Positions 1,242 to 22,024 of a DNA stretch of 45,437 nucleotides are shown here, piece by piece; the first letter of the stretch is position 1; each line of letters starts with the position of its first letter. The DNA comes from Patescibacteria group bacterium (GTDB lineage Bacteria; Patescibacteriota; Minisyncoccia; Phycocordibacterales; Phycocordibacteraceae). The stretch is taken from positions 1-45,437 of the forward strand of contig JAIELV010000003.1 of assembly GCA_019752595.1 (NCBI GenBank), in the 5' to 3' direction. The notes under the pieces are model-generated. The model searched no databases, had not been told where the DNA came from, and saw only the letters and a program-made list of their open reading frames with translations. Both the position numbers and the translations under genes were made by a program.

Positions 1242-1577
1242 CTATTTTACAATTCTATCGACAACCCAACCAACAATTGCAATAACTAATCCGCCGAGGA
1301 GCGCAGGGACAAAACCAGAGACATCAAAACCTTCGACAAAAGAAGCGATACCGAGTATCAAGCCTGCATTTATGACAAAAGTGAAAAGACCTAGCGTGAT
1401 GATATTCAAGGGCAATGTCAAGAGCACGAGAATCGGTTTGAGTGTGATGTTTAGAACGCCGAGTAAAAGCGCAACGATTGAGGCAGTATAAAAACTTTCT
1501 ACAGTGAAACCAGGAATGAGATACGCTGAGAGAAAAAGAGCTCCTACGGTCGCTAAGAATTTAAGAATGAGATTCAT
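1242..1577 (-). CDS. Phage holin family (4-TM, YvlD-like) membrane protein
   Basis: 111 aa hydrophobic; signature LNxxLKPILxLLTLPLNIITLGLFTFVINA. Confidence 0.85.
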   Translation of the reverse strand: MNLILKFLATVGALFLSAYLIPGFTVESFYTASIVALLLGVLNITLKPILVLLTLPLNIITLGLFTFVINAGLILGIASFVEGFDVSGFVPALLGGLVIAIVGWVVDRIVK

Positions 1578-1599
1578 ACGTACTCATTCATGGTAACAC

Positions 1600-4065
1600 T
1601 TATTTGCTTTCAACTATCTTCCACCCCTGCGTCAAAAGGGGTTCTGCTTTTTTGTATTTCATCTCTTTAGTTTCTTTACCGTTCGTTATGGTTACATGAT
1701 CATTGCGACCAATCTTATCTTTTCCAGGCTCAAGTGCAGAAACAACAATACGCGGAACCGATTGTGCGGAAACTTGAGGGGCGCCAAGCTTTTCAATTTG
1801 CTCAGCAATGGTAGCTGAAAGACCATTTTCAAGATCTCGGAACAGCCGTAACCCTTCTCTTCTGTATTCAATGAATGGATCTCTGCCGCCGTATGAGCGC
1901 AAGTTTACACTGCCACGCAAATGCTCCATCGTTTCCAAGTGCTCTATCCAAAACATGTCATATGTCTGAAGTAGCGTATTTCGAAGGACATGGATAAATG
2001 AATCTCCAAGCTCCACTTTCTTTGCTTGATATGCCTCTTCCTCCTTCCCTGCTGTTCTAAGGTGCTCACGTGCAAGCGTTTCAATTTCTTCTGGAGTGCC
2101 TACTAAAATCGCTCGTCGTTTTCCGTAGATGAGTGTTCGCTGATGGTTTAAGACATCGTCGAATCCGAGCACGTGTTTTCTTGAGTCGAAGTTTACTCCT
2201 TCTATTTTTTCCTGGGCGGATTCTAATGTGCGCGTTACTATCCCCGACTGTATGGGTTCATCTTCAGGAATTCCTAAACTCCCCATCATGTTCTTTACAG
2301 TGTCAGACGCAAAGATGCGCATCAGTTTATCTTCAAGTGAAACGAAAAATTGAGTCTCGCCAGGATCTCCTTGTCGCCCTGCTCTTCCCCGTAACTGATT
2401 GTCTATTCTTCGTGCATCGTGCCTTTCGGTTCCGATAACATACAAACCACCAAGCGCTTTTACTTCTTCATACGCTTCAAGTGTTGAGGGATTACCGCCG
2501 AGCTTAATGTCGACACCGCGGCCAGCCATGTTGGTAGCAACAGTCACCCCACCCTTAATGCCTGCTTGTGCGATGATTTCTCCTTCTCGCTCATGATTCT
2601 TTGCATTCAACATTTGATGTGGTATTCCCGCAGAACGAAGCGCAGATGCCAAACGTTCGTTCACCTCAATTGAGGTTGTACCAATAAGTACGGGCTGTTT
2701 CTTCTCGTGACGCTCCTTTACTGCCTTTACAATCGCCTTAAACTTCCCTGCTTCAGATTGGAATATGAGGTCATGTGAGTCCTTTCGAGCTATTGCGCGG
2801 TGCGTCGGGATGACCACCACATCTAAGTCGTACACCGAGCGAAACTCCTCCGCGCTTGTAGCCCCCGTACCAGTCATTCCAGCTACTTTCTCGTACATAC
2901 GGAAGTAGTTTTGGAACGTTACCGACGCATACGTTTGGCTCTCCTTTTGCACAGAAACACCTTCTTTTGCCTCAATTGCCTGATGCAATCCTTCAGACCA
3001 ACGTCTTCCTGGCTGTAAGCGACCCGTGAACTCGTCGACAATAACAATATTCCCGTCTTTTACGACGTAATCCTTATCCTTTATATAGATTGCTTGCGCT
3101 TTCACCGCCGATTCCAAGTGGTGGGCGTACTTTGTTCCGCCTTCAGCGTACAAGTTATCAAGCCCCAGCGCTTTCTCGGCTTTCTCAACCCCTGAATCGC
3201 TAATAATGACTGCGCGTAATTTTTCATCAACGGTATAATCGTCCCCTGCTTTCAAGGAGCGAGCAATAATAGCAAACGTTTTATACAACTCGCCTGCGTC
3301 GCGCGCGGGACCTGAAATAATCAACGGGGTACGCGCTTCGTCGATAAGAATAGAGTCTACTTCGTCGACAATAGCAAAATAATGATTCCGCTGGCGAATA
3401 TTAGCGGGGTCATACTCAAGGTTATCTCTCAAATAATCGAATCCATACTCGTTGTTCGTGCCGTAGGTTATGTCGGTCGCATACGCTTCTTTTCTTGAAA
3501 CGGGACGAAGAAATTCATATACAACCTTGAAAGAGCCGACCTCATCACGCTCTGCATCCTTCTCGCTGTGTGACGGGTCATATATATATGAAGAGTCGTG
3601 ATTGATGACGCCAACGGTGAGACCTAAAGCGGAATACACCTGCCCCATCCATGCAGCGTCACGACGAGCAAGGTAATCGTTCACGGTCACCACGTGCACA
3701 CCTTTACCCGTGAGTGCGTTCAAATACGCAGGCAATGTGGCAACCAAGGTCTTCCCCTCCCCTGTGCGCATTTCCGCAATTGAATGGTTATGGAGCACAT
3801 ACCCGCCGATAAGCTGTACGTCGTAATGACGCTCATTCAAAGTTCTCCTGGAGGCTTCGCGAGTAGCAGCAAACGCATCTGGCAGAAGCTGTTCGAGCGT
3901 TTCCCCTTCTGTTAGGCGTACACGCAAGGCTTCAGTGACTGCCCGAAGCTCTTCATCGCTCTTCGCTTGGTAGGCACTCTCCAGAGCGTTAATTTTGGGA
4001 ACGATGTTTTGAGCCTCTTTTAAGAGCGGGCTTTGGCCTTGAAAAATTTTATTGAGATCGAACAT
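1600..4065 (-). CDS. secA: Preprotein translocase ATPase SecA
   Basis: AEMRTGEGKT (Walker A), VTVNDYLARRD, IVDEVDSILIDEARTPLIISG, ATNMAGRGVDIKLGG, RRIDNQLRGRAGRQGDPG. ATG at 4065 preferred over the track's 4086. Confidence 0.98.
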   Translation of the reverse strand: MFDLNKIFQGQSPLLKEAQNIVPKINALESAYQAKSDEELRAVTEALRVRLTEGETLEQLLPDAFAATREASRRTLNERHYDVQLIGGYVLHNHSIAEMRTGEGKTLVATLPAYLNALTGKGVHVVTVNDYLARRDAAWMGQVYSALGLTVGVINHDSSYIYDPSHSEKDAERDEVGSFKVVYEFLRPVSRKEAYATDITYGTNNEYGFDYLRDNLEYDPANIRQRNHYFAIVDEVDSILIDEARTPLIISGPARDAGELYKTFAIIARSLKAGDDYTVDEKLRAVIISDSGVEKAEKALGLDNLYAEGGTKYAHHLESAVKAQAIYIKDKDYVVKDGNIVIVDEFTGRLQPGRRWSEGLHQAIEAKEGVSVQKESQTYASVTFQNYFRMYEKVAGMTGTGATSAEEFRSVYDLDVVVIPTHRAIARKDSHDLIFQSEAGKFKAIVKAVKERHEKKQPVLIGTTSIEVNERLASALRSAGIPHQMLNAKNHEREGEIIAQAGIKGGVTVATNMAGRGVDIKLGGNPSTLEAYEEVKALGGLYVIGTERHDARRIDNQLRGRAGRQGDPGETQFFVSLEDKLMRIFASDTVKNMMGSLGIPEDEPIQSGIVTRTLESAQEKIEGVNFDSRKHVLGFDDVLNHQRTLIYGKRRAILVGTPEEIETLAREHLRTAGKEEEAYQAKKVELGDSFIHVLRNTLLQTYDMFWIEHLETMEHLRGSVNLRSYGGRDPFIEYRREGLRLFRDLENGLSATIAEQIEKLGAPQVSAQSVPRIVVSALEPGKDKIGRNDHVTITNGKETKEMKYKKAEPLLTQGWKIVESK

Positions 4066-4505: not shown

Positions 4506-5543
4506 TTAGGAAAATTTTTCTTTATCTTTTCCAAACACACGAACTTCGGGAGAAATTTTAATTCCCGTCTCTGCAAAAAAATCTTTTACAATTCCTTCTG
4601 CTAAGACGAGTACATCACGTGTCGTAGCGTTTTTCTCTCCTGCAATAACCAAAGGTTGTTTCTCCCAAATAAACGCCCCCCCTTCTCGACGTCCCTTTGC
4701 GTGAAGAATTTGATCAAAAATCCACGCGAGGGGAACTTTCACACCTCCTTCAGGTAATTCATACACGGGCATCATGGGATATTTCTCACGTATCGCTTTC
4801 ACGCTCGTCGCTGTGAAAATAGGATTAAGGAAGAACGAGCCTGCGGTTCCGTATGTATCAAGCGGCGGGAATTTTGATGTGCGTATTTCCGCGACTGCAT
4901 CACGCACACGCACGAGGGTGGGTTCAATTGGTTTTTTTTCAAAATAAACGGTGAGGTCGCGATACTGCAAATTCGGCATACCTTTCGAGGAGAGTGCGAG
5001 CATGACGGAAACAATAACGTACCGATCGGCATTAGTTTTAAAAATACTTGTTCGATACCCGAATTCGCATTCCTCGCGCGAGAATGTGCGAAATTTTTCT
5101 TCATGCGTATCGAATACCTCAACTGAATGAAGCGTGTCACCGATAACCGCACCGTAGGCGCCAATATTTTGTACAACTGCAGCGCCTGTCGTTCCAGGAA
5201 TTGACGCAAGGTTTTCTATTCCCCACAAACCGCGCGAGACTGCATATGACACGAGCGCGTCCCACACTGCACCTGCCTCAGCGATAACGAATGTCTTTCC
5301 GTCTTTTTCCGTTTCGGAAATTGAGTTCGGAAGATATTTCAAGAGCGCCACGGGAAGACCGTCATCTGGCGGAAGCATGTTTGAACCATGACCAATCGGC
5401 ACGAGCGGAAGATTCTGCTCTCGCGAAAATGCGACAGCCTGTGGTAATTCTTCTTTTTTTTCAACACTAATCAAAAACCGCGCGGGGCCACCCGTGCGGA
5501 ATGTAGTCAAAGAGCTTAATGGTACGTTTTCTTCTATTTTCAT
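4506..5543 (-). CDS. murB: UDP-N-acetylenolpyruvoylglucosamine reductase
   Basis: TTFRTGGPA, IGHGSNML, GIENLASIPGTTGAAVVQNIGAYG, FGYRTSIFK, GTAGSFFLNP, PEVR. ATG at 5543 preferred. Confidence 0.96.
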   Translation of the reverse strand: MKIEENVPLSSLTTFRTGGPARFLISVEKKEELPQAVAFSREQNLPLVPIGHGSNMLPPDDGLPVALLKYLPNSISETEKDGKTFVIAEAGAVWDALVSYAVSRGLWGIENLASIPGTTGAAVVQNIGAYGAVIGDTLHSVEVFDTHEEKFRTFSREECEFGYRTSIFKTNADRYVIVSVMLALSSKGMPNLQYRDLTVYFEKKPIEPTLVRVRDAVAEIRTSKFPPLDTYGTAGSFFLNPIFTATSVKAIREKYPMMPVYELPEGGVKVPLAWIFDQILHAKGRREGGAFIWEKQPLVIAGEKNATTRDVLVLAEGIVKDFFAETGIKISPEVRVFGKDKEKFS

Positions 5544-5549
5544 ACGGAG

Positions 5550-5848
5550 CCCGCACACTAACTTTCGTCTTTGAGACTTCGCGAAATTCTCGTCATAAGG
5601 TGCTTTCGCGCTTGTCCTCGTAGCTTAAGCGCATCTTCACGATGGCGTGCGTCATCGTGGCTACGATACGCTTCATAGTAACAAAGTATAAACGGCGCGC
5701 GAGGACTGGTTGAACGTGACTTTTTTTCCTGATGCTCGCGAAGTCTCCGACGCAAATCACTGGTAACGCCTACATATAAATCACCATCTCGAACACTTTT
5801 CAGCACATACACATAAAACATGTAGGCAGACGAAAGTTAGTGTGCGGG
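5550..5848. mobile_element. Candidate GIY-YIG mini-element bounded by perfect 21-bp inverted repeats
   Basis: CCCGCACACTAACTTTCGTCT (5550-5570) and AGACGAAAGTTAGTGTGCGGG (5828-5848) enclose only the nuclease ORF. The repeat is certain; mobility is inferred. Confidence 0.6.
5558..5821 (-). CDS. Small stand-alone GIY-YIG nuclease
   Basis: 87 aa; YVYVL...LYVGVT.DLRRRLREH...YYEAY...ARHRE..LK, with the conserved Tyr/Arg/His/Glu positions present. Confidence 0.92.
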   Translation of the reverse strand: MFYVYVLKSVRDGDLYVGVTSDLRRRLREHQEKKSRSTSPRAPFILCYYEAYRSHDDARHREDALKLRGQARKHLMTRISRSLKDES

Positions 5849-5858
5849 GGAAGAGGGG

Positions 5859-6066
5859 GTTACCTGCGCCATGCGACCGACGGGTGCGAGCTCCAAGCAA
5901 AAATCTTTGTGAGTGCAGTCGTCGGCCGCATGGCGCAGACAACTCTACTACTGTACGCCTATCTACGGTTTCGAACAACTTTTTTAGCTGTAAAAATTAT
6001 ATAGTGCGAGGCGTGGAAAAACGACTCTTCAAACCGTAGGTGCTTCTACGGTGTAGAAGAGTCGTT
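5859..6066 (-). other. Structured non-coding region (two long hairpins)
   Basis: 24-bp stem 5859-5882/5920-5943 with three G-U pairs on the minus strand; second stem 6020-6030/6056-6066 plus 6033-6039/6046-6052. Confidence 0.55.
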
Positions 6067-6104
6067 CGGAACCGCAACGAAGCAATGGGTAATTTTAACG
6101 CTAA

Positions 6105-6178
6105 GAAACGCAAAACCCCGCCGAGGCGGGGGCTTACGCAGATTTTTGTCGAGCTAACACTTTTAGTTAGCACTCACC
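6105..6178 (-). ncRNA. Candidate ~70-nt small RNA or attenuated leader
   Basis: Lies between a consensus promoter and a GC-rich terminator (CCCCGCC-TC-GGCGGGG-TTTT); 5' hairpin CTAAC/GTTAG; no credible ORF. Confidence 0.4.
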
Positions 6179-6183
6179 TCCAT

Positions 6184-6211
6184 ATTATAGCAAAAACGGC
6201 TGGTTTTGCAA
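6184..6211 (-). promoter_or_regulatory. Sigma70-type promoter
   Basis: TTGCAA (6211-6206), 16 nt spacer, TATAAT (6189-6184) with an extended TGn. Confidence 0.65.
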
Positions 6212-6225
6212 GTCTTGCGGGGCGT

Positions 6226-8394
6226 CTAAGGGTTTCTACCTGCGGTAATCTCCTGTATATAGAATTCGCCCTGTTCCCTGAACGTGGCATCCAAAGAAAT
6301 TGCGGTACGGATAGAGTTTATCGCCGCCTCTCTGTTTCCAGCAGTTAGGTACGCCGCCGCGAGCTGTACATGAAGCTGGGCATTTTGGGGGTTCGCGTCA
6401 ACACGATTCTTTACTATAACTACCACTCTTTCAAAATTTTTCACTTCAAGATACGCCTGAAGAATGTACTCATTGTTAGGAGTTAGCGTCTCCCACTTCT
6501 CCATCATCAGCTTTTCAGCGAGGGCATTCTCACCCGCACGTATAGCAGTGGATGCGTAGTACGCAACTGCATCTTCATATGACGGATATATATCGTACGC
6601 TTTCTTAAACCATTCAAGAGAACCTGCAGCGTTTCCACGATTGAATTCAAGAACCGCGAGTTCAAATATGATTTGCTGTTTATTTGGCGAGAGTTCGTGC
6701 GCCTTCAAGAGTGATGCCAGTGCGCCTTCGTAATTACCCATCTGTCTCCAGAACGAACCGAGAAACATATGGAGCCGCGCATCATTCGGCGCTTTTAGGA
6801 GTTCTTTCTCCATTTCGGAAACAGCGTAGAGCGCCGCTTCTTGCTGAAACGCTGCATCCCCCGCGTTCAGACTTTTAACCTGCACCGCAAACTGAATCAA
6901 CTGCTCTGCACTTTCCTGACTTCCCAAACCTCCTGCGGCGCGAGCTTTTTTGAAATACTCCAAATTTTCATTGATAGTCGCGTGCGGTGAGATACCCTGA
7001 ATGATGTTTGAAGCCGTTGCCATCCCAGGCACGTTGACGAAATAGAATACGGCGCACATGACAAGAATAATCGCGGGTGCGATAACCATGTTGAGATTCC
7101 CCGAGACTGGACTGCCAGAAACTGGCGCATCGTCCGCATACGATCGGTAATAGATATAGGCGAGCGTAGACATAAAGAAGACGTAGCTCAAAAGATGATC
7201 AAACACGAAGAGGTTGTGGAATGCGTACGCGGCAAGAAGTCCGGTAAATATACTTCGCTCAAAATTCGTCAGCGCTGAGCCAGGCCTCCAAATTGCCCAC
7301 ATGGTAGCGACGTACAGCGACACATAGAGAATGAGTCCGACAATACCTCCCGCAACGAGCCAGTCTACGAATGCGTTATGGGCTCGATCAAACCACGGCT
7401 CCTGTGAGTGTAATGATGGTTTAAAGTAGGTATTAAAGATGTAGTTGTATCCTTCCTGACCCCATCCGAAAATCGGCCGCTCGGCAACCCCCTGAAGGGC
7501 CATGTCCCAAATCGCAAAACGTGTTTCTCCTTGCGCAATGTTGATGGAAGCAAGTCGAGTAAGGATGCCATCGTTTTGGACAAACTGAGTATCTTTTATC
7601 GCAAAGAAGCCTCCGACTACGACTGCAGTCGCAACAAGTGCCACAGCTCCCCATTTTTTCATCTCAGCATTTCCTTTCCCAAGGAACAGAAGCAAAATAC
7701 CAGTGAGAAGCGTGCCCCCGATGAGTGCAAGCGTGGTGCCACGAGTGGCGGAAAAGAAAATCATTGTCACCTGAAGCGCAATAGCGAACAGGTAAAAATA
7801 ACGCATCAGAAATGTCTTCGCCCACGTTTTTACCAAGTAGTACACAGAGACAAATGCGTGGAAAAGCATATAGACCGCCATATAGGTCGCGTTCCCGAAT
7901 GTCCCGTCAACACGCAATCCGCCCTGATTGATCGTGAGCGTACCAGAAAGTTGCAAGAGACCATAGAGGCTCATCAAGACCGAGACGACAATGGACGTGT
8001 TCCAAAACCACTTCCACGCTTTCTCTGTCTGCATCACGGACCACAACAGGAAGAAATACGCGGTTGAGTGCGCGAGGCCAATCCAACCTTCCATACGTTC
8101 AAAGTTAGACCAAAATGCTTTCTCAGGATTTACTGCGAAAAGTACGGAAATACCGGCCGATGCAAGGAATGCGAGCATGAGAACCGGAAGCGCTTTGAAG
8201 CGCGGGCGTGCCGAAACATCTTTCAGCATCAGTATCAGCCATAGCGCAAATGCAATCTCTACAATAATCCGAAACGCAAAGTTCTTACCCGTAATGAACG
8301 GAAAAAAGAATGAGTTCGCTACGATAAACGGGATCAAAGTCGCGAGGCACAGGAGGACGATAACGGCGTTCCGCAGGAAAGAATCAGAATTCAT
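6226..8394 (-). CDS. O-antigen ligase/Wzy_C family membrane protein with C-terminal TPR repeats
   Basis: Multi-TM; RVDGTFGNATY, SATRG, RFAIW...RPIFGWGQEGY, FDRAHNAFVDWLV.GG; helical TPR-like tail. Confidence 0.88.
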   Translation of the reverse strand: MNSDSFLRNAVIVLLCLATLIPFIVANSFFFPFITGKNFAFRIIVEIAFALWLILMLKDVSARPRFKALPVLMLAFLASAGISVLFAVNPEKAFWSNFERMEGWIGLAHSTAYFFLLWSVMQTEKAWKWFWNTSIVVSVLMSLYGLLQLSGTLTINQGGLRVDGTFGNATYMAVYMLFHAFVSVYYLVKTWAKTFLMRYFYLFAIALQVTMIFFSATRGTTLALIGGTLLTGILLLFLGKGNAEMKKWGAVALVATAVVVGGFFAIKDTQFVQNDGILTRLASINIAQGETRFAIWDMALQGVAERPIFGWGQEGYNYIFNTYFKPSLHSQEPWFDRAHNAFVDWLVAGGIVGLILYVSLYVATMWAIWRPGSALTNFERSIFTGLLAAYAFHNLFVFDHLLSYVFFMSTLAYIYYRSYADDAPVSGSPVSGNLNMVIAPAIILVMCAVFYFVNVPGMATASNIIQGISPHATINENLEYFKKARAAGGLGSQESAEQLIQFAVQVKSLNAGDAAFQQEAALYAVSEMEKELLKAPNDARLHMFLGSFWRQMGNYEGALASLLKAHELSPNKQQIIFELAVLEFNRGNAAGSLEWFKKAYDIYPSYEDAVAYYASTAIRAGENALAEKLMMEKWETLTPNNEYILQAYLEVKNFERVVVIVKNRVDANPQNAQLHVQLAAAYLTAGNREAAINSIRTAISLDATFREQGEFYIQEITAGRNP

Positions 8395-11388: not shown

Positions 11389-12686
11389 GTTTCATACGCA
11401 CGCACACAATAGAGATCTTTCTCGTACTGCTCTCATTGATAGTTCACCTTGCCAGTTTTGCCGCTGTTACACAAGAGAATGGCAGTGTACTTCAAGCGGT
11501 GCGGGCCGACGACGGGTATTACGAACTTGCCCAAAACATCATTGCAGGGAATGGTTTTTCCTGGAGCGCAGAAGCTCCGTATGCACCAAATCCCTTGCGG
11601 ACCCCTGGTTACAGTTACACTCTTGCAGGACTAATGGCAACGGTGGGGGTGTTGGGCGCGGCACTCATACAACTTGTTGCTGCTTCCGCAATTCCTATTT
11701 TCGGAATGATGATTGCGCGCACCATCACTGATTCGCGCACTATTGGAATAGCGACAGGAACTATACTTGCGGTCGACCCAACACTTGCCCTCCTCTCTTT
11801 TCAGTTCTATACAGACACTTTGTTCTTACTTCTCTTCTTGCCATGGCTCATACTCACTCTGCGCTACATAAAACAACCGAACATAAAAACACTTGCTTTG
11901 AGCGCAGTTTTACTGGGCGCAGCAATTCTGGTACGGCCTGTGGCGCAATTTCTTCCACTTATTATCCTGCCTCTCATACTTTGGCACTTTCGTAAAACCG
12001 AACGACGACAAGGACTGGCGCATGCAGGGATATATATACTTCTTATCGGCGCGATGCTTACGCCGTGGGTATTGAGGAACATGCACGAGTTCGGTGTTCC
12101 CTCTTTGAGCGCACAAACACCATTTGTGTTGTACACCAACCTCGTCCCTGCCGTACTGAGTGTCGCAAACGGAAGCGACTTTTTATCTGAACGAGATTCA
12201 TTCTTAACTCCCGAAGAATACAAAGGCAACGCTATAACGCCTGCAAACGGTAGTGCGTACACGAAAGAAGCCCTAACTATCGCACTTGCACATCCTACAG
12301 CTTCAGCGTTCGTCGTCGCTAAATCACTCTTCACATTCTTTACCAATGATGGTTTCTACTCGTTCCTTGTACAAATAGGGCACAATCCCGATACATTTAT
12401 GCCACTTCTTGTAGTCGCACGCCTCGTATGGATTGCCATAACGCTCCTTGCGCTCATAGGCGCGGGTATATATCTCTTCACCAAAAGAACACCCCAAACA
12501 CTGCTCATTGTGTTTTTGGTTGCGTATTTTGCACTCACAAGCACCATCGCTGCTTTTGGCACGAACCCACGCTACCGGCTTCCCGTAGACCCCATTATCA
12601 TTGCGCTTGCAGGGGTCGGCGTCACCGAAATTATCACGCGCGGACAACGACTTCTCTCGCGTAATCAGAAAAAAGACGCCCTATAA
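11385..12686 (+). CDS. GT-C (family 39/ArnT-like) glycosyltransferase
   Basis: DDGYYELAQNI..G.GF, RTPGY, TDTLF, LVRP, PWVLRN, RYRLPVDP; multi-TM. Confidence 0.85.
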   Translation: MSFIRTHTIEIFLVLLSLIVHLASFAAVTQENGSVLQAVRADDGYYELAQNIIAGNGFSWSAEAPYAPNPLRTPGYSYTLAGLMATVGVLGAALIQLVAASAIPIFGMMIARTITDSRTIGIATGTILAVDPTLALLSFQFYTDTLFLLLFLPWLILTLRYIKQPNIKTLALSAVLLGAAILVRPVAQFLPLIILPLILWHFRKTERRQGLAHAGIYILLIGAMLTPWVLRNMHEFGVPSLSAQTPFVLYTNLVPAVLSVANGSDFLSERDSFLTPEEYKGNAITPANGSAYTKEALTIALAHPTASAFVVAKSLFTFFTNDGFYSFLVQIGHNPDTFMPLLVVARLVWIAITLLALIGAGIYLFTKRTPQTLLIVFLVAYFALTSTIAAFGTNPRYRLPVDPIIIALAGVGVTEIITRGQRLLSRNQKKDAL

Positions 12687-12693
12687 TGGCATT

Positions 12694-12990
12694 ATGCAAA
12701 GCGTCTCAGACTGGCAAAAGACCCTGAAAAAAGCGGCTGATAGTAAATACCCGAATAATGCGTTGGGTGGATTTGACCGTATTCAATCAGTACAAGAACA
12801 ACTTGATGATGTGAAGGCTGCGCTCAAGGTAGAGCAAGGAGCGCTACAGAGCAACGACCATGCGCATCAGGACCCCAATCACCGCATCGGGGCCTTACTC
12901 GCCGATATTCTTATTCTCGCCGAAGAGCGTGGAATTAATACTGAAAGTGAACTTGAGAAAATCCTCGCGTGGTTTGAGGGTCGCAAGTAA
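12694..12990 (+). CDS. Small helical protein, MazG/NTP-pyrophosphohydrolase-like
   Basis: 98 aa from ATG 12694 (TATAAT 6 nt upstream); VQEQLDDV...IGALLADILILAEERGIN resembles the MazG helices. Confidence 0.55.
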   Translation: MQSVSDWQKTLKKAADSKYPNNALGGFDRIQSVQEQLDDVKAALKVEQGALQSNDHAHQDPNHRIGALLADILILAEERGINTESELEKILAWFEGRK

Positions 12991-21982: not shown

Positions 21983-22024
21983 AAACGCCCGACGCTACGA
22001 TTAGCTGTAGCGTCGGGCGTTTTT
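21983..22024 (+). terminator. Intrinsic terminator between convergent genes
   Basis: AAACGCCCGACGCTAC/GTAGCGTCGGGCGTTT 16-bp stem plus T tail. Confidence 0.85.

Follow-up and report, generated by a model that had tools for sequence, protein, structure and literature searches.

In insertion sequences (IS) that depend on DDE transposases, and in the miniature inverted-repeat transposable elements (MITEs) paired with them, terminal inverted repeats (TIRs) and short target-site duplications go together with many cargo-less derivatives that share only their ends with a rare coding copy. REP-associated tyrosine transposases (RAYTs) are Y1 HUH enzymes, encoded by a single small nuclease-type gene that is flanked by inverted copies of a multi-copy repetitive extragenic palindrome (REP). 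The Correia, RPE, and ERIC elements are hairpin elements of 100–150 bp with inverted ends that occupy intergenic or genic sites and fold in RNA; we know of no transposase for any of them. Here we analyze a 299-bp unit in which a gene for a small GIY-YIG nuclease is bracketed by perfect 21-nt inverted repeats. It lies at positions 5550–5848 (minus strand) of a 45,437-nucleotide stretch, hereafter the window, that comprises positions 1 to 45,437 of contig JAIELV010000003.1 from a Patescibacteria group bacterium (assembly GCA_019752595.1). The unit probably represents an autonomous member of a miniature mobile element family, with MITE-like derivatives, in genomes of the candidate phyla radiation (CPR; Patescibacteria).

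GIY-YIG proteins of CPR bacteria have been described from another setting. Every one that occurs within a CPR rRNA insertion sits in an insertion resembling neither intron class, and they seem to stand outside a homing context (Tsurumaki et al., 2024; PMC11270868); in the parts of that article consulted, the term "inverted repeat" is absent and neither duplications nor cargo-less copies are reported. The same parts summarize rRNA intervening sequences with open reading frames (ORFs), i.e., 23S_rRNA_IVP, that are cut out by RNase III. Prokaryotic stand-alone Slx1-like proteins are regarded as vertically inherited in the sections consulted of Dunin-Horkawicz et al. (2006; PMC1564403), which also pose the question of molecular parasitism for other GIY-YIG members. 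A further article (PMC12455944), in its consulted parts, merely lists a GIY-YIG gene among transferred genes. Literature searches, with subscription journals and supplements outside their scope, found no report on bacterial GIY-YIG genes with inverted repeats, MITEs, or REPs, and none on ORFs in the RNase P RNA of CPR bacteria.

The two arms of the unit (5550–5570 and 5828–5848) are 100% complementary over 21 nt and stand 257 nt apart. The arm 5′ of the ORF (5828–5848) reads CCCGCACACTAACTTTCGTCT on the ORF strand and ends 6 nt ahead of the ATG (5819–5821); the arm 3′ of the ORF (5550–5570) encodes the last residues of the protein (..DES) and its TAG stop codon (5558–5560). The ORF itself (5558–5821, minus strand) encodes 87 amino acids and takes up the whole space between the repeats. 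A perfect 12-nt inverted repeat is nested inside the unit, its arms at 5573–5584 and 5736–5747. Beyond the outer end of the 3′ arm, a further 6 nt lead to the start codon of murB (MKIEENV; 5541–5543). Apart from the nested repeat, which it does not mention, these relations agree with a preliminary description of the locus. Allowing up to three mismatches, the 21-nt arm matched only its two known places in the window and found no match in 100 dinucleotide shuffles. The 45-kb window has only four inverted repeats of 14 nt or longer whose arms are no more than 400 nt apart, and that of the unit is the longest perfect one. The bases beside the arms, CTCC at 5546–5549 and TTCC at 5849–5852 (both on the ORF strand), agree at three of four positions and may be read as an imperfect 4-bp duplication. 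Group I and group II intron families of Rfam were not found in the window; at the gathering threshold no Rfam model matched anywhere in it, and a tRNA/tmRNA scan of it was likewise negative. A permissive Rfam scan of 5400–6350 gave weak matches far under the cut-off (RsmY, 21 bits against 57) that were taken as chance.

The protein of the unit matched the Pfam GIY-YIG family (PF01541) over profile positions 1–74 of 78, with an E-value of 4.1e-15 and 56.3 bits against a cut-off of 22.6; it consists of this one domain with no auxiliary domain. Residues Y5, Y16, R26, H30, E62, and K66 are invariant across an alignment of its 34-member clade, and we take the first five to be the catalytic Tyr, Tyr, Arg, His, and Glu of GIY-YIG enzymes. 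In a profile comparison with PDB sequences, the UPF0213 proteins 1zg2 (E 3.1e-18) and 1ywl (1.2e-12) ranked ahead of SLX1 (7cq2; 2.1e-4) and I-TevI (1mk0; 1.3e-3). The AlphaFold2 model (pLDDT 91.2) comprises three strands and helices, and its best Foldseek matches were UPF0213, At-HIGLE, and Slx1-Slx4 (7cq2 and 7wme among them), with a probability of 1.00 and query TM-scores of 0.56–0.67; UvrC and I-TevI ranked lower, the latter with a probability of 0.35–0.72, and every one of the top matches was a GIY-YIG domain. No Foldseek E-value reached 0.001, and this ranking serves only to support the sequence-profile result. The ratio of nonsynonymous to synonymous substitutions (dN/dS) was 0.06–0.51 in the five pairs with unsaturated dS, which points to purifying selection on the nuclease. 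The protein is apparently a minimal, functional-looking nuclease from the branch whose characterized members cut branched DNA; by analogy with these, its choice of substrate may be structure-specific. A paralogue elsewhere in the genome (C1:706701–706898) is unbracketed. It lies immediately after a tRNA gene, has a terminator-like hairpin behind it, and belongs to a sub-clade that has lost the glutamate of the YYEA motif.

Bracketing by inverted repeats recurs among relatives of this gene. The window genome (903 kb in three contigs) encodes four small GIY-YIG genes, and a second one (C1:169834–170080; 74 aa) is bracketed by a different 13-nt repeat (ACCCCGCCCTCTA) whose arms overlap the ATG and the stop codon. 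Protein searches of 41 genomes, i.e., this one and 40 relatives, gave GIY-YIG matches in 36, with 0–7 per genome; 81 of the 85 ORFs called were kept (70–110 aa, no internal stops). To score bracketing, we took the highest complementarity that the start region of a gene reached with its own stop region, and the null comprised 6480 mismatched pairs that joined the start of one gene to the stop of another. The 99th percentile of this null (score 11) was reached by 21 of the 81 genes. In bracketed genes, approximately 0–20 nt separate the 5′ arm from the ATG, whereas the stop codon is overlapped or followed by the 3′ arm. For labeling on the tree, we left out L050, in which the 3′ arm lies 49–67 nt past the stop codon, and put in L020, L040, and L046, which score 9 and have the same stems as their sister copies. 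All 23 genes so labeled fall within one clade of 34 (support 98/94) and none in its sister clade of 47; not one of 500 label shuffles was as clustered. A further member of the same clade, L052, is likewise flanked by repeats.

Sub-clades of the nuclease match families of the repeat: CCCGCACAC.. (the window element and its homologue L009), ACCCCGCCCTCTA, ACCCYGTTAAAT, ATCCCGTTAGAG, and TCCCGT(T/A)GTAGA. A second set, independent of the first and made up of 80 metagenome contigs retrieved with the window protein, gave 72 usable loci, of which 40 scored at least 11 and 35 scored at least 13, the 99th percentile of that set's own null; further repeat families were added by these loci. Longer and more distant GIY-YIG genes (95–105 aa) in eight metagenome contigs (L332, L329, L318, L331, L321, L323, L325, and L315) have inverted REP-like hairpins as flanks (GTCATTCCCGCGAAAGCGGGAATCCAG type). 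These arrangements recall RAYTs and their REPs, and may extend the association beyond the CPR.

Comparisons between homologous loci point to movement of the unit as a discrete piece of DNA. The neighbors of the bracketed genes differ every time, e.g., class I aminoacyl-tRNA synthetase/PrsW, hexose dehydratase/oxidoreductase, FtsK/RecA, MraW/PBP, HisRS/RNase H-like, ThyA/dCTP deaminase, and DnaB/RecR. The nuclease of L009 (genome G024) shares 67% protein identity with that of the window, and the first 18 nt of the 21-nt arm are identical in both arms; homology between the two loci ends exactly at the outer arm ends, with the flanks unrelated from the first outside base. Since the arms are identical while synonymous sites of the two ORFs are saturated (pS 0.78), the TIR sequence is conserved by selection and not by recency alone. 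Among the matches listed, 15–18 nt of the repeat end of the window element are common to L009, L114, L119, and 26 cargo-less elements. Two pairs of closely related copies show the same border between element and surroundings: elements are 82% identical in L043/L044 and 92% in L020/L046, against 55–62% and 53–69% for their respective flanks.

The insertion point in the window lies between murB (4506–5543, minus strand; FAD_binding_4 and MurB_C domains), which is a co-oriented host gene immediately downstream of the element, and a structured leader RNA motif of murB (5855–5950, minus strand). This motif is host sequence, adjoins the insertion point on its upstream side, and marks what an empty site looks like. 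A gene for a Wzy_C/TPR membrane protein lies upstream of the element. The Wzy-murB adjacency is kept in 18 of the 25 relatives with a murB match, and none of these 25 murB loci has a GIY-YIG match. In two of the relatives (G022 and G010), the conserved leader hairpin runs directly into the murB ATG without the element, and in a contig from a G010-like organism (run X4), murB is likewise joined to the leader without the 299 bp. The closest relative (G019; murB 75% identical) carries a cargo-less element of approximately 165 bp from another repeat family (L230) within the start codon of murB, and the end of that element regenerates the ATG. In a strain 99% identical to that of the window, the ORF differs by V10T, Y52C, D63G, and one silent change, with the arms unchanged; no contig of the element-bearing strain was found to skip the element (contigs only). 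These alignments identify the window element as a lineage-specific insertion, with the murB leader hairpin on one side of it and the murB start codon on the other. Flanking repeats on homologous nucleases, absence of the gene from the syntenic site in relatives, and further copies of the repeat, which the preliminary description had named as decisive, were all observed. The suggestion made there that the unit spreads by homing is not supported: insertion sites are diverse and carry duplications, rather than representing one conserved allele.

Copies of the repeats also occur without the gene, both in the genome of the window and in many other CPR genomes. We initially regarded the window repeat as unique in its genome, given that the full 21-mer with up to three mismatches finds the two arms only; this was abandoned when a 13-mer of the outer end found cargo-less relatives at C1:435031–435167 (137 bp), C1:567006–567078 (73 bp), and C1:762810–762836 (27 bp). 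The second family is represented in this genome by seven cargo-less hairpins of 27–84 bp (C1:33192, 73136, 516411, 539190, 540380, 568417, and 587993), which keep the ATG/TAG asymmetry of the gene-bearing copy at C1:169834–170080, as expected of internal deletion derivatives. A TTAGAAA motif precedes several of these hairpins, and a terminator-like T-run comes after one of them.

Beyond this genome, a 15-mer of the window arm, scanned over one genome per species, matched at least 121 stretches, single matches being mostly chance for a word of this length. Among the matches listed, an inverted pair of the window's repeat family was present in 28 of the 80 loci with DNA; all of these loci came from metagenome-assembled genomes (MAGs) of CPR bacteria, with one exception labeled Nitrospira, and MAGs with the same repeat carry labels such as Kaiserbacteria, Parcubacteria, and Saccharibacteria. 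Two of these 28 distinct elements (297 and 302 bp) have a GIY-YIG ORF that closely resembles that of the window element, and 26 are ORF-less (36–183 bp); a third gene-bearing locus, L112, is interrupted by a contig end and stands outside the 28. Cargo-less hairpin elements overall span 36–196 bp. With up to one mismatch, ATCCCGTTAGAG was found in forward and reverse orientation 8 + 8, 7 + 7, 15 + 15, 27 + 22, and 12 + 12 times in five genomes, compared to 0–2 for the reversed control sequence, and its arms form mostly inverted pairs approximately 105–185 nt apart. The counts for AACCCYGTTAAAT were 10 + 11, 6 + 8, and 2 + 1, often with a spacing of 45 nt. Among the 41 genomes, all five that encode the cognate nuclease sub-clade contain at least seven pairs of ATCCCGTTAGAG.

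Target-site duplications accompany these copies. Duplications of at least 4 bp flank 18 of the 28 window-family elements among the matches listed (TTTA, TATA, TAAA, CTTG, TATG, CATA, and others) and 16 of the 18 fetched cargo-less elements of the TCCCGTTAGAG family (TGAA, TTCA, TCCA, TACA, TAGCA, TATCA, and others), where the outermost bases of the duplication depend in part on where the element border was set. On gene-bearing copies, they were present in 10 of 24 and 10 of 35 in two sets. With the right flank moved by 7 nt, no duplication was left in the first two sets, and shifted-flank controls for the two gene-bearing sets were likewise at 0. For the ATCCCGTTAGAG family, an apparent duplication of 2–3 bp with a 2-nt stagger was considered and dropped, since placing the border one base further in gives 4–5 bp, as in the other family. 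The earlier statement that the unit lacks a convincing target-site duplication is accurate for the window copy, with its three matching bases out of four, and does not extend to its relatives, in which duplications of 4–5 bp occur. Many insertions of the ATCCC family lie in the start codon of a host gene (..ATGA|element|GAA..), with the element end restoring the ATG; in L042–L044, the nuclease ORF begins at the host ATG itself. Sequence comparison establishes for the family its discreteness, its insertion, its duplications, its cargo-less copies, and the co-divergence of nuclease and repeats. The proposal that the unit is a minimal selfish element without a classical transposase is borne out to the extent that copies with and without cargo, empty sites, and flanked homologues have all been found.

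Some homologues reside in genes for structured RNAs. In L011, the Rfam model of bacterial small subunit rRNA aligns across the element (E 2.8e-68), which forms a 285-nt insert in place of a 6-nt loop; the insert lies in the helix at model positions ~66–100, the element arms align to the helix strands, and no intron ribozyme is present. In L016 (~1460–1790, minus strand), an RNase P RNA gene carries the ORF at the P3 stem-loop position: the two strands of a 13-bp stem enclose it, a conserved ..AGGAAAGTCC.. segment comes immediately after that stem, and flanking sequence provides the P1 pairing. The downstream part matches the class A model (RF00010) with an E-value of 1.3e-14, under the gathering score and with a visibly forced 5′ end. 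The same P3 arrangement is seen in L286, L283, and L268 (E 1.1e-15, 8.9e-15, and 2.8e-13, all under the gathering score), and the inserts of these four loci belong to two different repeat families. The scores probably fall under the threshold because of the insert. In L257 and L262, the final bases of the 3′ repeat already include the start of a tRNA gene, and the element of L257 has a duplicate of the first ~9–10 nt of this tRNA at its other side.

For the window copy, which sits in an mRNA leader and not in an rRNA helix as does L011, the sense transcript has a predicted minimum free energy of -115.6 kcal/mol (z -4.9), with the 21-bp stem closing the ORF and the 12-nt inner repeat nested within it. 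RNase III is encoded in the genome. Mismatches in 24 stems comprised 9 G.U, 14 A.C, and 19 others, compared to 412 Watson-Crick pairs; because G.U pairs are not in excess over A.C, the stems carry no signature of selection on the sense RNA. In our reading, the repeats are the ends of an element at the DNA level, and their pairing in RNA makes the insertions harmless. At the window locus, pairing of the stem would return the murB leader hairpin to a place next to the murB start.

These observations are best read as an undescribed family of TIR elements of ~300 bp whose only gene encodes a minimal GIY-YIG nuclease. An element of this plan has two TIRs of ~12–25 nt, usually with a CCC start and a GGG end, and one ORF of 74–95 aa of Slx1/UPF0213 type that fills the interior, with its start codon a few nt inside one repeat and its stop codon in or beside the other. 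Insertion duplicates 4–5 bp of target, and cargo-less MITE-like derivatives are multi-copy. That the nuclease is the mobilizing enzyme is the most economical reading, and we consider it reasonably likely. The nuclease would recognize hairpin or branched DNA formed by the palindromic ends and make staggered cuts at element ends and targets, with host repair and ligation completing the move. No promoter fits between the repeat and the ATG, so the ORF can only be transcribed by read-through from host sequence. Pairing of the repeats in the transcript would loop the ORF out, such that insertions would be tolerated in operon spacers, start codons, a helix of 16S rRNA, and the RNase P RNA P3 loop. 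The window element landed downstream of the conserved murB leader hairpin, just ahead of the murB ATG. More tentatively, and with somewhat more doubt than belief, we propose that the unit may be the first example of a prokaryotic transposable element class that is new, in which a minimal, structure-specific Slx1-like GIY-YIG nuclease takes the place of a transposase by acting on its own hairpin or cruciform ends and host repair finishes the reaction.

Several results weigh against a driving role for the nuclease, and some of them would suit another arrangement, in which a different enzyme moves MITE- or REP-like hairpins and a free-standing selfish GIY-YIG gene has settled in their loops, e.g., by cutting hairpin tips. 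A hydrolytic nuclease cannot perform strand transfer, so joining must fall to host functions, and the protein is a catalytic domain alone with no recognizable DNA-binding or strand-transfer module. Copies of ATCCCGTTAGAG occur in genomes without the cognate nuclease, and the link between nuclease and repeat is therefore not obligatory: G017, G024, and G033 also hold at least seven pairs but encode other bracketed nucleases, G002, G004, and G008 have 4–10 arms per strand and no bracketed nuclease, and G029 has 3 + 3 copies and no GIY-YIG match at all. Such copies may be fossils, may have been cross-mobilized, or may have been moved by something else. Cargo-less and gene-bearing copies of the CCCGCACAC family have little in common beyond ~17 nt per end, and a clean duplication is present in under half of gene-bearing copies. 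The window copy is single in its genome and occupies the same site in runs from two studies; with its imperfect duplication and no sign of recent movement, it may be inactive. Co-orientation with the downstream ORF (21 of 21 callable bracketed genes; 24 of 29 in the metagenome set) is weak evidence because it is also high for unbracketed GIY-YIG genes (42 of 50). Yet a gene that merely rides in hairpins moved by another enzyme is unlikely overall. No other protein-coding gene was seen between these repeats in the genomes examined, and DDE_Tnp_1 (PF01609) and IS1380 (NF033539) are missing from four of the five repeat-rich genomes, with matches only in G038, although this exclusion covers those two transposase families and five genomes only. 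The correspondence of nuclease sub-clades to repeat families is unexpected if the gene hopped among hairpin families. Gene-bearing copies are also much rarer than cargo-less ones (~1 compared to 7–25 per genome), a ratio that speaks against the gene homing efficiently into empty hairpins. In the window genome (G000), second-family hairpins of 47 bp retain the start/stop asymmetry of the gene-bearing copy, like deletion derivatives.

Two further explanations assign the repeats to RNA or to the host. The unit might be purely an RNA intervening sequence, as the preliminary description also considered for the murB mRNA, with a stem that serves RNase III cutting or mRNA stabilization and with spread by horizontal transfer or recombination in which the nuclease takes no part. 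The homologue in a 16S helix, the four at the P3 position of RNase P RNA, the dominance of the stem in the predicted RNA fold, the presence of RNase III, and the report of CPR rRNA insertions with GIY-YIG ORFs as non-intron insertions, as given in the consulted parts of PMC11270868, all fit this explanation. Behavior as an intervening sequence is indeed a likely consequence of palindromic ends, but on its own it explains neither the duplications of 4–5 bp nor the dozens of cargo-less copies at unrelated intergenic sites, which are signatures of DNA insertion; the stems lack an RNA signature, and purifying selection on the nuclease would need a reason. As a full account we judge it very unlikely. 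Equally improbable, in our estimate, is a domesticated pair comparable to RAYT and REP, in which a host-retained nuclease maintains hairpins that serve the host as terminators, mRNA stabilizers, or leaders. Such a pair would agree with the low number of genes (1–2 per genome) relative to many hairpins, with fixation of the gene in the species across two studies, with the terminator-like T-run after one second-family hairpin, and with the 95–105-aa genes flanked by REP-like hairpins in other metagenome contigs. It sits poorly with the patchy distribution of the gene among the 41 related genomes (0–7 copies), the different location of every homologue, and its absence from the syntenic site in relatives; moreover, insertions within essential RNA genes look parasitic rather than useful.

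The surroundings of the element hold further structured sequences. The murB leader motif is a long hairpin with an invariant loop (..CACTCACATAGATTTTTGCTTGGAGCTCGCACCC..), and 21 murB loci of the genus have it upstream of the gene. In an alignment of 20 sequences, 10 of its 28 predicted pairs show compensatory changes. No Rfam family matched it; a cis-regulatory leader and a riboswitch-like element are possible identities. A small RNA-like unit (~6105–6189, minus strand), situated between this leader and the Wzy gene, comprises a TATAAT-like box (6184–6189), a stem-loop, and a hairpin with a T-run resembling an intrinsic terminator. It is conserved by eye in G019, G022, and G010, and only sub-threshold Rfam matches overlap it (RsmY, 21 bits). 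Elsewhere in the window, two further inverted repeats are a perfect 16-nt hairpin with an 8-nt loop (21983–22022) and a 16-nt pair, 88% complementary, whose arms are 376 nt apart (12439–12846).

If the nuclease drives movement, it would represent a fifth enzymatic route to prokaryotic DNA transposition besides those of DDE, HUH, serine, and tyrosine enzymes, and the unit, at ~300 bp, would be the smallest autonomous element known. It would also provide a mechanism for the published GIY-YIG ORFs in rRNA insertions of CPR bacteria, which are not introns and show no obvious homing, and would account for the coding inserts in the P3 loop of RNase P RNA and for orphan MITE-like hairpins; orphan palindromic repeats in general would gain a candidate type of partner. 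The REP-like hairpins beside 95–105-aa GIY-YIG genes from other phyla suggest that many "housekeeping" UPF0213 nucleases may be partners of palindromic repeats more generally. In reduced genomes, helix loops of essential structured RNAs, i.e., 16S rRNA and RNase P RNA, can evidently accommodate inserts that code for protein. A nuclease guided by structure, with a hairpin to define its own substrate, may be of interest as a tool, and the question is testable with one 87-aa protein and 299 bp of DNA.

Compared to known systems, the family is closest in layout to IS and MITE pairs, with which it shares TIRs at the exact unit borders, duplications in relatives, and dispersed cargo-less copies. It differs from them in that the element encodes no DDE, HUH, serine, or tyrosine recombinase and its only gene is a nuclease domain of 74–95 aa; at ~250–320 bp, it is to our knowledge smaller than any IS. 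With REPINs and their RAYTs it shares the arrangement only, since the enzyme here is of GIY-YIG type, the flanks are halves of one long palindrome, and insertions carry duplications. The homing endonuclease I-TevI has the same catalytic fold and a selfish life style, but it matches the protein only weakly; the protein lacks a DNA-binding domain, and the element neither contains an intron nor keeps to one conserved target allele. Slx1 and UPF0213 (YhbQ-like) proteins are the best matches in sequence and fold (1zg2, 1ywl, 7cq2, and 7wme) and are similarly minimal, with no auxiliary modules; in contrast to the vertical inheritance ascribed to them in the sections consulted of PMC1564403, one clade appears here as the cargo of a mobile element. 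The GIY-YIG insertions of CPR rRNA, as described in the consulted parts of PMC11270868, share the kind of ORF and the bacteria, and L011 is exactly such a case, whereas the cassette studied here also occurs in mRNA leaders, operon spacers, and RNase P RNA and beside tRNA genes. The 23S_rRNA_IVP sequences summarized there likewise place a coding insert with complementary arms in the loop of an extended helix and do not self-splice; they differ in that their ORFs belong to another family, while the window copy lies in an mRNA leader and its relatives show DNA duplications and dispersed cargo-less copies. Finally, the Correia, RPE, and ERIC elements are found in other bacteria and have other sequences, and, unlike them, the present family has a visible coding partner.

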